Below, one piece after another: positions 5,881-29,724 of a stretch of DNA of 64,000 bases. The position numbers were made by a program, and so were the translations under genes. The notes under the pieces were generated by a model. The model did not search any database. It saw only the letters and a program-made list of their open reading frames with translations, and was not told the DNA's origin. The DNA is from a virus, in the IMG/VR virus record IMGVR_UViG_3300032053_000003, positions 158,392 through 222,391 of that record; one strand, given 5' to 3'. The number at the start of each line of letters is the position of its first letter. Within the stretch, counting starts at the first letter, position 1.

Positions 5881-5916
5881 CCCTATAACGGTTTTAGGGT
5901 AGGTAGTTTGTACACA
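5881..5916 (-). promoter_or_regulatory. Diverged copy of the conserved 35-bp phage promoter-like motif
   Basis: ccctataacggttttAGGGTAGGTagtttgtacac against the consensus ccctataacggttttcaccccagcagtttgtacaa. 26 nt upstream of the lipoprotein start. Confidence 0.5.
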
Positions 5917-5935
5917 TATTTTTAAAACTCATTGT

Positions 5936-6175
5936 CTATGATGTCAGGTTCTCCTTCCTGAGTGCATACGGCAATTTTGACATACAGGTAGGGTCCTCAT
6001 AGGTGTAACAAATGTCTATGAAGTTCTCATGGTTGAAAGACTTCCTTCTGGGCATCACATCAACAATCCGATGTACCGTGGATTTCCAGGTAAGAAGATC
6101 GTAGGTGGATTTATCCGAGGGTCTTGTCTTTGCCATTGCAATGGCTATCATCTTCATCTCTTTGATTGTTATCAT
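5936..6175 (-). CDS. Hypothetical protein
   Basis: 79-aa ORF. Start and stop overlap (ATGA) with the upstream gene. Confidence 0.4.
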   Translation of the reverse strand: MITIKEMKMIAIAMAKTRPSDKSTYDLLTWKSTVHRIVDVMPRRKSFNHENFIDICYTYEDPTCMSKLPYALRKENLTS

Positions 6176-6705
6176 TACTTCACCTTTCTTGTAGGGAACT
6201 GATTGAACAGCTTACCCAGTTTCGATACATTGATGATCATCTGTGTTTTCCAGTTCTGAGTACCTGAAGCTGTTATAACTTTCAGGACCGAGAAACTCCA
6301 TACATGATTGCCTACCAAAGTGGCCTCTGAAGCCTCTCCGATCTTTCCGATCAGCTTTGCTACAAAAGTATCATACTGAGCAGAAGCATCAGCTTTTGTC
6401 ACACCCATGAACCTCTGGATACGATCTTCTGTGATGTCTACATACTCAGGCTCATTTACTCTTCTGCTACCCTGACGATAGGTTACCAGGGACTGAAACA
6501 ACTGCCTCTTCGACATAGCCATAAAATATTCGGACCTGCTTACCTTTCCTGCTTTGGGATAGGGAGCTACCAATTGAAGGTCATTACCAGCATTCTCAAG
6601 CTCTTTACGGCATTTCTCAATCAATGCCACTGCATGCAGTTCTGCTTTCAGAATAGCATCATTCTTGAGGGGAGCCACTGCTTGTTCAATAGGGTTTATC
6701 TTCAT
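6175..6705 (-). CDS. Hypothetical protein
   Basis: 176-aa ORF. The 35-bp motif ends 5 nt before its ATG. Confidence 0.5.
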   Translation of the reverse strand: MKINPIEQAVAPLKNDAILKAELHAVALIEKCRKELENAGNDLQLVAPYPKAGKVSRSEYFMAMSKRQLFQSLVTYRQGSRRVNEPEYVDITEDRIQRFMGVTKADASAQYDTFVAKLIGKIGEASEATLVGNHVWSFSVLKVITASGTQNWKTQMIINVSKLGKLFNQFPTRKVK

Positions 6706-6710
6706 CTTAT

Positions 6711-6745
6711 CCCTATAACGGTTTTCACCTTAGCAGTTTGTACAA
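6711..6745 (-). promoter_or_regulatory. Conserved 35-bp promoter-like motif, copy 2
   Basis: ccctataacggttttcaccTTagcagtttgtacaa with an A/T tract beyond it. Confidence 0.55.
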
Positions 6746-6824
6746 AAATTTACTTGATTTTAAAAAGAAATGTACTATATTTAAAACTGCGAGTTTCACC
6801 GAATGGGTTTCTTCAAGTTAGAGA

Positions 6825-6852
6825 CGGTCCTGGGATGTGCATACCAGGACCG
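6825..6852. other. Perfect 9-bp inverted repeat with a 10-nt spacer
   Basis: cggtcctgg-gatgtgcata-ccaggaccg, lying between the promoter motif and the 36-bp repeat array. Confidence 0.4.
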
Positions 6853-6880
6853 TTTCGTTAATAAAATGTTTCAATCGTCT

Positions 6881-27309: not shown

Positions 27310-27321
27310 ATTATCTCCTGT

Positions 27322-27356
27322 ACCTATAACGGTTTTCACCCTAGCAGTTTGTACAG
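27322..27356 (-). promoter_or_regulatory. Conserved 35-bp promoter-like motif, copy 6
   Basis: acctataacggttttcaccctagcagtttgtacagg. Confidence 0.5.
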
Positions 27357-27368
27357 GAAAGTTAAGAC

Positions 27369-27773
27369 CTACTTATTTCTGATCTCCTTCAGTACCTCTC
27401 TTATCCTTGATATCCTCCTCAATTTTTCCAACATCTCCTTGCATGCTGGTGCTTGTCTGGCTGTTATCCTCTTCAGTAGTGGGCACATTCCCAGCTGATT
27501 TTTGGCAATCTTGGTGGCTTCCTTCTTCACAATACCCTCGTACTGATCTTCCATCATCTTGAAGAACTTTTCAGGGTTTATTTTGTGACCATTGATCAAA
27601 ACATCCAGCTGGATGGTGTAGTCATCCTGCTCTTCTTTGGAGAGCTTCATCTTCTCTTCAGCTATCTTCTCCAGGATCTTCCTGGGAGTACACTCAAGAA
27701 AAATGTGGGATAAGACGTTGTGGATATCCAAAGCATCTTTCATTTTAATCTTCATTGGTACCTTCCGTATCAT
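27369..27773 (-). CDS. Hypothetical protein
   Basis: 134-aa ORF. Confidence 0.5.
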   Translation of the reverse strand: MIRKVPMKIKMKDALDIHNVLSHIFLECTPRKILEKIAEEKMKLSKEEQDDYTIQLDVLINGHKINPEKFFKMMEDQYEGIVKKEATKIAKNQLGMCPLLKRITARQAPACKEMLEKLRRISRIREVLKEIRNK

Positions 27774-27790
27774 ATAGATCTTGGCATATC

Positions 27791-29671
27791 TTAATTGAGT
27801 CCCAGGATGTCCATCAGACCATCTTCAGTGATGACAGGGATACCAAGCTTGATAGCCTTCTGCATCTTGCCTGAGGAGCTGCTAGGATCGTTACAGACCA
27901 GGTAATTGACCTCTTTACTCATAGTCTCCCTCAGCTCAACTAATCCAGCCAGAAACTGTTCAAACTCTTTTCTGACCATAGAGACAGGACCTGTAACCAC
28001 AATGATCATCTTCACAGATACAGTAGCCTTGGGTGCAGCAAAGGGGATCTTCTTAGCCATCCTGCTCCAGAACATGTAGGTCCTACTCATCTCTTCCATA
28101 ACATCAGAGTGCAGCTTAATCTTGGCACCCACTTCAGGAATCTGATTATCTGGGTCTGTGAAGCTTTTAGGGTCTGTGTTCTTCAGCTTCTTGCTGTGGG
28201 AATCACCAAGGGTAGGGATGCCTATCATGTTCCAGAACTCTTCATAGGTAAACCCAGTCTTGAACTTGTCATAGATATGATCCATAAGTTTGGCTTCAAG
28301 CTTCTCATAATGACTGTGGGTTATGATACTCTTGGAATGAGCATGATAATCCCCACCTGTCACTTCCCATCTATGAACCAGTTCATTGTACTGATCTATG
28401 ATTTCGTCTACCTTACGTCCATTGATCCACTTTTTGAGGAGTTTGTCACCAAAACCATCAGGAATCCTACAAAATCCAAGAATAGACTTGATGATGGAGA
28501 ATTGCTTTGCAGGACAGTACTGGTTATAACAGTACAGATCCATGTTTCTCCAGGCAAGAAGCTTTCCACAATCAGGGCAAAGATCAGGAAGATCTGCTTT
28601 GGCTGGCTTATCCACGGAGACCAAGTAAGGGATAACCTCATTGGCTCTTTCAATAGTTATCTCAGCACCCTCTCCAATGCCCTTGTCTTTGACCTGGGTG
28701 GCATTGTGGGCAGTAATGGATACAATGTTGGCTCCTGAGAGGAATATGGGCTTGGTGAGCTTTATAACTGGTGTTATCCTTCCAGTGTTTCCAGCTTGCC
28801 ATTCGATACTACCCACTATAACCTTGGCCCTCTCACTCTCAAACTTGTAAGCAATGGCAGACTCATTAATGGCAAATGCTGCTTCATTTTTAATCTTGGA
28901 GCCTGTAAGACAGCTGTTCTTGGTAATAACAAGACCATCTATAGGGAACTTCTCTGACCAATGTTCATACAGCTTCTTGAAGAACTCCTGCTGGTTTCCT
29001 TTGATCTTATCACCATCTCTGGTAGGGATACGTTTGAATCCCCAAGAGGCTATCAGCTCAAGCATTTCCTGCTTACCAATCAGCTGACTATAGACCCTTA
29101 TGGAGTAGGGAATGAACCTGAGCATTTGGATGTCTTCCCCAGCTTCAATCCTGTTGATAATGCCGTTTGCATAATTACGAGGGTTAGGGATACCTCTGGC
29201 AACCAAGGTCTTATGATAAGAGTTAGGAATGACAACTTCCCCTCTGATAGAAACGAGTCCCATAGCAGTTACTTTTGTGCCTACCAGGATATACTTCATC
29301 TTGTTCAAGCATGACATACCTTGGGCACCATCACCACGAGTCAGAGCATCTTCAAGAACACCATCAAAGTAGTTGAGGACAATCGATCCACCATCGATTT
29401 TAGGCGTAATGGTGGTGTCACGAGTGTCATATGTCTCAGGGTATTTGATCTTGCTCAAACTTCCAACCGTAGAGCCAATGTGGTCTACTTTCTTTTTAGT
29501 ATCTATAGCATACCCCCACCCAGGTACAAGAAGTAGAGGGTCTTTAGGGTTTAAAGTACGAAGCTCATCCACTAGGGCATCAAATTCAGAGTCCGATATC
29601 TCCTGTTGTCCATCATAATAGGACTGGCTGTAATGAGCTATGTCTTTTTCCAGAGTTTCAATTCTACCCAT
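27791..29671 (-). CDS. ligA: NAD-dependent DNA ligase
   Basis: KIDGGS adenylation motif. OB-fold segment GSIEWQAGNTGRITPV. Zn finger CPDCGK...CYNQYC. C-terminal BRCT-like domain. Confidence 0.85.
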   Translation of the reverse strand: MGRIETLEKDIAHYSQSYYDGQQEISDSEFDALVDELRTLNPKDPLLLVPGWGYAIDTKKKVDHIGSTVGSLSKIKYPETYDTRDTTITPKIDGGSIVLNYFDGVLEDALTRGDGAQGMSCLNKMKYILVGTKVTAMGLVSIRGEVVIPNSYHKTLVARGIPNPRNYANGIINRIEAGEDIQMLRFIPYSIRVYSQLIGKQEMLELIASWGFKRIPTRDGDKIKGNQQEFFKKLYEHWSEKFPIDGLVITKNSCLTGSKIKNEAAFAINESAIAYKFESERAKVIVGSIEWQAGNTGRITPVIKLTKPIFLSGANIVSITAHNATQVKDKGIGEGAEITIERANEVIPYLVSVDKPAKADLPDLCPDCGKLLAWRNMDLYCYNQYCPAKQFSIIKSILGFCRIPDGFGDKLLKKWINGRKVDEIIDQYNELVHRWEVTGGDYHAHSKSIITHSHYEKLEAKLMDHIYDKFKTGFTYEEFWNMIGIPTLGDSHSKKLKNTDPKSFTDPDNQIPEVGAKIKLHSDVMEEMSRTYMFWSRMAKKIPFAAPKATVSVKMIIVVTGPVSMVRKEFEQFLAGLVELRETMSKEVNYLVCNDPSSSSGKMQKAIKLGIPVITEDGLMDILGLN

Positions 29672-29687
29672 ATTCTTATCTCCCTAC

Positions 29688-29724
29688 CCCTATAACGGTT
29701 TTAACCTCAGCAGTTTGTACAACT
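29688..29724 (-). promoter_or_regulatory. Conserved 35-bp promoter-like motif, copy 7
   Basis: cccctataacggttttAaccTcagcagtttgtacaactat, 16 nt upstream of the ligA start. Confidence 0.5.

Follow-up and report, generated by a model that had tools for sequence, protein, structure and literature searches.

What reads a short element that recurs seven times, each time directly before a leftward gene, in a stretch of phage DNA that also encodes a sigma factor? The stretch that raises this question is 64,000 nt long (IMG/VR record IMGVR_UViG_3300032053_000003, positions 158,392 to 222,391; hereafter the window) and is part of the genome of an uncultured metagenomic jumbo phage of about 237 kb. The original prediction had proposed a phage-specific promoter class read by a phage sigma factor whose gene lies at 17267-17833. 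According to the analysis presented here, the elements would represent, with a probability of roughly two in three, a phage-specific class of two-box promoters tied to a small, RpoH/RpoS-like phage sigma factor, a judgment based on sequence comparison.

The motif itself is real and highly non-random. Its two-box core, GTACAAAC-N15-CGTTATAGG, has seven exact matches in the window, all on the minus strand (5882-5913, 6712-6743, 13623-13654, 14690-14721, 19657-19688, 27323-27354, and 29689-29720), against 0.05 expected from shuffled sequence, and the positions given originally proved right to within 1-2 nt. The complete element is 33 bp long, with the layout TGTACAAACT-N9-AAAACCGTTATAGG and boxes of 10 and 14 nt. 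All copies agree at 25 of the 33 core positions (TGTACAAACT, one C, and AAAACCGTTATAGG), and the earlier figure of "35 of 35" conserved positions was thus too high. Eight of the nine positions between the boxes vary, and the spacer of the copy at 5882, ACCTACCCT, is wholly different; at the same time, the spacer length is fixed, so that two boxes joined by a spacer of constant length and variable sequence were found in 7/7 copies, a layout shared by the relatives described below. The 42-nt string from which the prediction started is matched without mismatch at 13622-13663 and 19656-19697 and with one mismatch at 14689-14730.

The recommended scan for further copies was run over 82 kb, comprising the window and 9 kb on each side, and revealed neither additional nor degenerate ones: allowing up to three mismatches to the core gave no sites beyond the seven in the window, and no additional or weaker copies were present at 30-64 kb of the window or in either 9-kb flank. 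The looser pattern AAC-N15-CGTWAT recovered just the same seven sites, and the sole extra match to any loose pattern (A[AC]AAAC-N15-CGT, at 47548-47571) has no -10 box. The A/T tract that had been ascribed to every copy is clear in five of them, where A+T makes up 77-95% of the 22 nt upstream (59% in the window as a whole); the copy at 27354 has a weaker tract (73%), and the one at 29720 has none (59%).

Every copy lies in a short non-coding gap between minus-strand open reading frames (ORFs) and is co-oriented with the gene immediately downstream. Copies inside coding regions or on random strands, which had been named as grounds for abandoning the promoter reading, were looked for, and all copies proved to be on one strand and in non-coding gaps. 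P1 (5882-5914, minus strand, as are all the following) has the composition TGTACAAACT-ACCTACCCT-AAAACCGTTATAGG and stands 27 nt upstream of the ATG of the gene at 4718-5854. P2 (6712-6744) ends about 6-7 nt before the ATG of 6175-6705, and since only about 6 nt separate that ATG from the element, the P2 transcript may be almost leaderless. P3 (13623-13655) precedes the ArdC gene (12656-13618), and P4 (14690-14722), which begins just after the stop codon of 14724-15395, precedes the gene at 14276-14644. P5 (19657-19689) is located upstream of a gene for a 239-aa protein (18907-19626) and heads the leftward run that includes the sigma gene. P6 (27323-27355) is followed by a DUF7168-like gene (26590-27309) and a DNA methyltransferase gene (25072-26271), and P7 (29689-29721) by the gene of a NAD-dependent DNA ligase, LigA (27791-29671). 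The ArdC, LigA, and 18907-19626 genes had rightly been listed among those downstream of copies.

The first ATG follows TATAGG after 3-34 nt, in agreement with the 3-33 nt originally given, except that the 3-nt case is probably spurious: the ATG at 14686 is probably not the real start of the gene after the copy at 14690, because the gene call in an identical sister contig begins at 14644, with an AGAGGA Shine-Dalgarno sequence. With the preferred starts, the elements are located 6-45 nt before the start codon. The MKTVIG N-termini of ORFs 12656-13639 and 26590-27339 were correctly recognised as artefacts, as both begin at a GTG inside GGGGTGAAAACCGTTATAGGG; ATG starts preceded by Shine-Dalgarno sequences occur downstream of it, at 13618 and 27309.

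The candidate reader, encoded at 17267-17833 (minus strand), is a protein of 188 aa whose assignment to the sigma-70 family was confirmed; a 237,444-bp JGI contig is its recorded source. It has a Pfam region 4 match (48 bits) and also matches models of RpoH, RpoS, and the generic sigma-70 superfamily; the cut-off was passed solely for the generic sigma-70/ECF (extracytoplasmic function) superfamily model TIGR02937 (55 bits versus 42.9), which points to no specific family. Comparison with solved structures ranked RpoH, RpoS, and SigA highest, through region 2.1-2.2 and region 4, and an ECF (group 4) identity was rejected on account of these matches. The full-length form of the protein, 218 aa long, contains sigma2 and sigma4 domains without region 3 and most closely resembles RpoH/RpoS; the family shows good conservation of region 4, with RERIRQIE invariant. 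In a tblastn search against cultured phages, the best match had at most 29% identity, and a sigma-profile scan detected no relative in the genome_contigs collection and only generic bacterial sigma factors in metagenome_contigs.

The version of the sigma factor carried by the window is a deletion allele. In an alignment of six family members, the window protein alone lacks 30 residues, SGNRFATFARHWVIQKLMEGIYFKMNLSRM, which align to RpoH 96-125 and to RpoS ...RFSTYATWWIRQTIERAI... and which we take to be sigma regions 2.3-2.4; these regions of sigma-70 recognise the -10 element and melt DNA. At the DNA level, the gene equals that of L002, a sister contig of 230,776 bp from the European Nucleotide Archive (ENA), except for a clean 90-bp in-frame gap flanked by AGT (microhomology), with its junction near 17594-17597, and apart from this gap the two sequences are 100% identical over 20.6 kb. 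The deletion allele was also found in the Logan assembly of SRR9651337, possibly from the same sample, and the full-length allele in three other assemblies. The sigma factor encoded in this genome has region 4, with regions 2.3-2.4 gone here and intact in L002, and the proposal that 17267-17833 is the reader would fit the family of the protein but probably not this allele.

Note that the sigma gene is located in one of the operons headed by the element. The order of element, 239-aa gene, small ORFs, ATP-ligase-like gene, and sigma gene is the same in the window, L002, the related contig L005, and the L129-L132 lineage, and the L129 contig begins inside its element copy upstream of the sigma operon; the sigma factor would therefore be made from its own promoter class. 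A copy of the element stands before the 239-aa gene not only in the window, L002, and L005 but also in L128 and the L129-L132 lineage; the product of this gene has no Pfam, NCBIfam, or PHROG match. Directly after this first gene of the P5 operon lies a strong hairpin with an 11-bp stem (18872-18898, minus strand), which may attenuate or terminate transcription before it reaches the ligase-like and sigma genes, and the 239-aa protein may be highly expressed and split from the sigma genes by such an attenuator.

Further evidence comes from related phages, for which a promoter alignment had been suggested and was now made: it gave lineage-specific variants of one two-box element. Four related sigma-encoding lineages each have their own variant, with L128, discussed below, as the exception to the rule that the motif changes with the sigma factor. 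L005, a contig of 246,837 bp with a 38% identical sigma factor and the gene order of the window, contains no window-type motif; instead, 20 kb of it contain nine copies of cGTTAAAACAA-N10-ATTCGTATA, all in sense orientation, just before a Shine-Dalgarno sequence and ATG and usually followed by yrGGTACGGAGG and the ATG. The variant in L129-L132 (sigma P0241, about 50% identical) is TGTTAGATCTGCTC..TCGATTCGTATA, and in L039 the sequence CGTAGAAAT..ATTCGTATACAGGT stands in front of ArdC. GT..A.AC and CG(T)TATA are common to the relatives, and the pattern across lineages can be written as yGTnnrAwC, 14-15 nt, and CG(T)TATA, often with GGTA, while the spacer sequence varies. Each lineage has one constant distance between the upstream box and TATA, of 16, 17, or 18 nt.

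Three genes, those for LigA, the DUF7168-like protein, and the 239-aa protein, were checked in both the window and L005, and each has the local variant immediately upstream in both genomes. Because of these matching gene positions, and because the LigA promoters of the two phages share the spacer GGTGtGAAA, the element site is taken as inherited; the boxes have drifted together genome-wide, as expected of one trans-acting reader co-evolving with its sites. Exact two-box scans of viral_contigs and metagenome_contigs gave no matches, the source contig and its relatives being absent from both collections, and the L005-type pattern gave single matches per contig in viral_contigs, which is the chance level.

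This comparison also bears on the register of the boxes. The proposed pair TTGTAC-21-TTATAG does not hold up in a hand alignment, in which the TTG of the window and that of L005 are 3-4 nt out of step and AAAC...CG keeps its 15 nt. A better reading of the boxes is ACAAAC/CAAACT and CGT-TATAGG, at ordinary sigma spacing: with the -10 element at TATAGG and the -35 element at ACAAAC or CAAACT, the spacer would measure 17-18 nt for the window and 15-17 nt for the other lineages. In P6 and most L005 copies, TATA is followed after only 5-8 nt by the Shine-Dalgarno sequence, and since this sequence or the ATG follows so closely on TATA in P6, L005, and P2, leaders must be very short or absent.

Direct observation extends to the motif, where and on which strand it lies, its division into two boxes, and its variation by lineage in parallel with the sigma factor; the two boxes, fixed spacer, A/T tract, co-orientation, and short distance to the Shine-Dalgarno sequence and ATG are features of bacterial-type promoters. 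The mechanism that we propose is as follows. Host core RNA polymerase carrying the phage sigma factor would read each element as a two-box promoter, with TGTACAAACT serving as a -35 element recognised by sigma region 4 and AAAACCGT-TATAGG as an extended -10 element recognised by regions 2.3-2.4/3.0, where the CG would act as the extension, and with the upstream A/T tract acting like an UP element. Transcription would start a few nucleotides after TATAGG, and the leaders would be very short, with the Shine-Dalgarno sequence at or close to their 5' end. The promoters would head seven leftward units covering most of 4.2-29.7 kb, except about 19.7-25 kb, and the regulon would comprise genes of DNA ligases, ArdC, a methyltransferase, a Thg1-like enzyme, and surface-repeat proteins, together with the sigma operon. 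The presence of the sigma factor inside its own regulon would create positive feedback. A host-type promoter-like site at 22005-22033 (minus strand; TTGTAA-17-TAAAAT with an upstream TG), which heads the operon just upstream of that of P5 and has a similar counterpart at the matching position in L005, could prime this loop, because read-through from 22033-22005 could give the first sigma transcripts.

Several observations weigh against this assignment of the elements to the phage sigma factor. All seven elements are intact although the sigma factor of the window genome lacks regions 2.3-2.4, the regions for -10 recognition and melting, for which reason it is probably non-functional or crippled here; the regulon is probably switched off or impaired in this genome. 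However, the deletion looks very recent because the 20.6-kb stretch shared with the sister contig is otherwise identical, and intact promoters therefore argue neither way. The L128 phage, reached via a search with the neighbouring ligase-like protein, has the gene order of the window, including the 239-aa, LigA, and vault-like genes, and two good copies of the motif, one (tGTCGAAAC-N15-CGTATAGGTA) ahead of the 239-aa gene and another (tGTAAAAAC-N15-CGTATAGGTA) ahead of a 624-aa gene, but no sigma factor of the family within 10 kb on either side; the sigma position is occupied by a 473-aa ORF (10619-12040) without a sigma signature. A profile search of the protein database gave nine clear family sigma factors, none of them on a contig of the L128 phage's size. 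In L127, which has retained only AAATTCGTA boxes and has no sigma factor in 20 kb, the position after the ligase-like gene holds an unrelated 185-aa ORF (10585-11142), again without a sigma signature. Both phages would allow the reader to be a host factor; at the same time, they are represented by 20 kb each, that is, by partial genomes, and a sigma factor may lie elsewhere in them. The exact register of the boxes is also uncertain, because a start 7 nt after TATAGG would fall inside the P6 Shine-Dalgarno sequence. Finally, no RNA-polymerase-like ORF and no second sigma factor were found in the 82 kb, and another polymerase or factor could be encoded in the remainder of the approximately 237-kb genome. 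Taken as a whole, the proposal of a phage-specific class read by the phage sigma factor is partly supported; it gains from the lineage-matched variants and the copy upstream of the sigma operon, and loses from the deletion allele and from the L128 motif without a nearby sigma gene.

The same observations lend some weight to the view, unlikely but deserving of consideration, that the promoter is read by an alternative sigma factor of the host, RpoH-like or of group 3/4, and that the phage sigma factor is a captured copy supplementing or replacing it in some lineages. Besides L127, L128, and the intact promoters beside the broken sigma gene in the window genome, this view draws on the fact that cellular RpoH and RpoS are the closest structural relatives of the phage protein. 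Against it stand the differences in the motif between lineages, in step with sigma divergence, and the strict uniformity within each genome, which is typical of a dedicated phage factor, and its own evidence is weakened by the partial view of L127 and L128 and by a window deletion too recent for promoter decay. An evolutionary variant, in which the promoter class predates the phage sigma factor, is independent of it, and is read by a host sigma, and in which some jumbo phages captured and shrank an RpoH-like sigma to take over the regulon, seems improbable. It includes the similarly improbable suggestion that the allele without the 30 residues, having kept the core-binding region 2.1-2.2 and region 4, might circulate in the population, act in a dominant-negative or anti-sigma-like manner, and tune or block the regulon. 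A phage RNA polymerase encoded outside the window, either T7-like single-subunit or multisubunit, would account for the very high within-genome conservation and for the TATA followed by GG(G) where a start is expected; the end of the element, TATAGGGA, resembles the T7 class III promoter ...TATAGGGAGA, and the examined DNA amounts to 82 of 237 kb. It is nevertheless a very improbable reader, as the element is a 33-nt bipartite structure with a variable spacer and an A/T tract, not a continuous block of about 20 nt as in T7-like promoters, and as the sigma gene lies within the regulon in four lineages. The bipartite layout and the lack of a polymerase gene in the 82 kb led us to reject the element as a T7-like promoter.

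That the elements are sites for a phage regulator, for example a dimer on the TGTACA palindrome, acting over weak host-type promoters and without any part in sigma recognition, is scarcely probable. TTGTACAA, read from the aligned copies, does form an 8-bp palindrome in most of those in the window, the conservation exceeds the needs of two hexamers, and weak sigma-70-like matches occur in the A/T tracts upstream of P1, P2, and P5; however, the TGTACA palindrome is absent from the matching boxes of L005, L128, L039, and L131, and a TGTACA operator was rejected because it is not conserved in these relatives. In addition, the element is strictly directional and located at a fixed short distance before the Shine-Dalgarno sequence and ATG, and the sigma-70-like matches around the elements (4000-23900, about 20 kb) number 45 against 44.5 in shuffles. 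A repeat with no role in transcription, be it a recombination site, the end of a mobile element, or a structured RNA or processing signal, is the origin to which we would give least credence. The independent short-read assemblies L001, L124, L129, and L130 end exactly inside element copies, so the copies do behave as dispersed repeats and could mediate recombination, but they occur in a single orientation, always in the non-coding gap before a gene, with no inverted-repeat or terminal structure in their flanks, and their position upstream of orthologous genes has been kept while the sequence diverged. As RNA, they fold no better than shuffles in six of seven tests (z from -0.96 to +0.99; one copy reached -2.6 owing to its flanks), and the whole window gave 0 Rfam matches at the gathering score. 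An RNA element was therefore rejected for want of a fold signal and an Rfam match, and a dispersed palindromic or mobile repeat of the REP/MITE type because of the single orientation and, again, the missing fold signal.

Reading the elements as promoters of the phage sigma factor places them beside several known systems. In Salmonella phage 7-11, the sigma factor gp47 directs the host core polymerase to eight bipartite promoters of the type GTAAtg-N16-aCTA (PMC8948821). Common to that phage and the present one are a small phage sigma factor, a handful of fixed-spacer bipartite promoters in intergenic gaps, and host-type promoters elsewhere. At the same time, the sigma factor considered here is unrelated in sequence, its best cultured-phage match being the one of at most 29% already mentioned, the boxes are longer (10 + 14 nt) and of other sequence, the genome is that of a jumbo phage of about 237 kb, and the genes presumably driven look like those of DNA repair, anti-restriction, and surface proteins, in place of the late structural genes of 7-11. 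Phage phiEco32 encodes gp36, a sigma factor without region 4, and its middle/late promoters consist of a single -10-like element, tAATGTAtA, with no -35 box (PMC8948821, PMC12276001). The likeness lies in a phage sigma factor with its own highly conserved promoter element for temporal control, and the difference in region 4 and the upstream box, both of which are present in the window phage system.

Phage SPO1 uses a cascade of the sigma factors gp28 and gp34, small proteins of about 200-220 aa that replace the host sigma on the core polymerase (PMC13401047). The protein described here differs from them in being closest to RpoH/RpoS, and no gp33-like partner was identified for it. The late -35 sequence of SPO1, taken as CGTTAGA, is similar to the L005/L131 sequences CGTTAAA / TGTTAGA. 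Among bacterial group-3 and ECF systems, sigma-28 has the consensus TAAA-N15-GCCGATAA, and ECF promoters follow an 'AAC...CGT' pattern; the A-rich ..AAAC upstream box, the CG-containing extended -10 element, and the short fixed spacing recall both, but no known consensus fits both boxes. From RpoH, the phage sigma factor differs in its length of 218 versus 284 aa and in the absence of region 3. Sigma factors are common in the genomes of jumbo phages that lack a polymerase of their own (PMC7824862). Judging by these comparisons, the sigma-promoter pair would be like those of known phage systems, although the sigma factor appears not to be a sequence relative of cultured-phage sigma factors.

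With respect to genome context, no close cultured-phage relative was found: a blastn search with 8 kb gave one trivial 53-nt match. The ORFs of the window include a DnaB-like helicase, a split family-A DNA polymerase, an SbcC-like protein, and a UvsX-like recombinase besides ArdC, the NAD-dependent ligase, and the methyltransferase, and no tRNA genes were found in the window. Canonical TTGACA-type promoters can be seen by eye in other gaps (at about 43.7 kb, 26.3 kb, and in the divergent gap at 55.5-56.4 kb), so the host appears to use ordinary promoters there, and the seven elements form a separate class. The last of these gaps, 865 nt long, A/T-rich, and located at 55507-56370 between leftward replication genes and rightward helicase/recombinase genes, contains three tandem hairpins GCTTTACGGAGTAAAGC (55636-55706) and several TTGACA-type promoter-like sites and is likely an early control region or origin.

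The P3 operon contains the gene for a Thg1-like tRNA-His guanylyltransferase (8647-9534, minus strand; PHROG 4717, E = 5.5e-84) and that for a 574-aa protein with RCC1 repeats and PASTA and CarboxypepD_reg domains (10104-11828, minus strand), after which comes a terminator-like hairpin at 10076-10095. In the non-coding gap just upstream of P2, about five tandem 36-bp repeats, TTGTGGGTTTCA...ATGATTCATAA (6880-7059), adjoin a 17-nt inverted repeat (6821-6856); the 36-bp repeats look like iterons and could represent an origin or a regulator array. In the 319-nt gap that separates the DUF7168-like gene of the P6 unit from the methyltransferase gene, an array of about six copies of TTAGCTAxACT with a 10-11-bp period (26528-26590) comes directly after the former gene. 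The largest ORF of the window (892 aa, 30581-33259, minus strand) matches Vault_3 domains and, in Pfam, the Major Vault Protein shoulder (72 bits), an unexpected combination in a phage; the vault-like protein is kept in L128 (3347-5890, 847 aa, same domains). In L127, an IS605-family TnpB / Y1 transposase pair is inserted at 16663-18080.

A phage sigma factor with matching promoters is a textbook timing device, yet very few such pairs have been defined, and almost none for uncultured jumbo phages. The pair described here is compact, with a 218-aa sigma factor and a 33-bp promoter, and has natural variants in at least four lineages, which makes it testable in vitro and a possible orthogonal expression part. 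The in-frame loss of the -10-recognition segment of the sigma factor in an otherwise identical 20.6 kb provides a natural knock-out. Moreover, a regulon of ligases, ArdC, methyltransferase, and surface-repeat proteins has been marked out, and the timing of its expression in these phages could be worked out.

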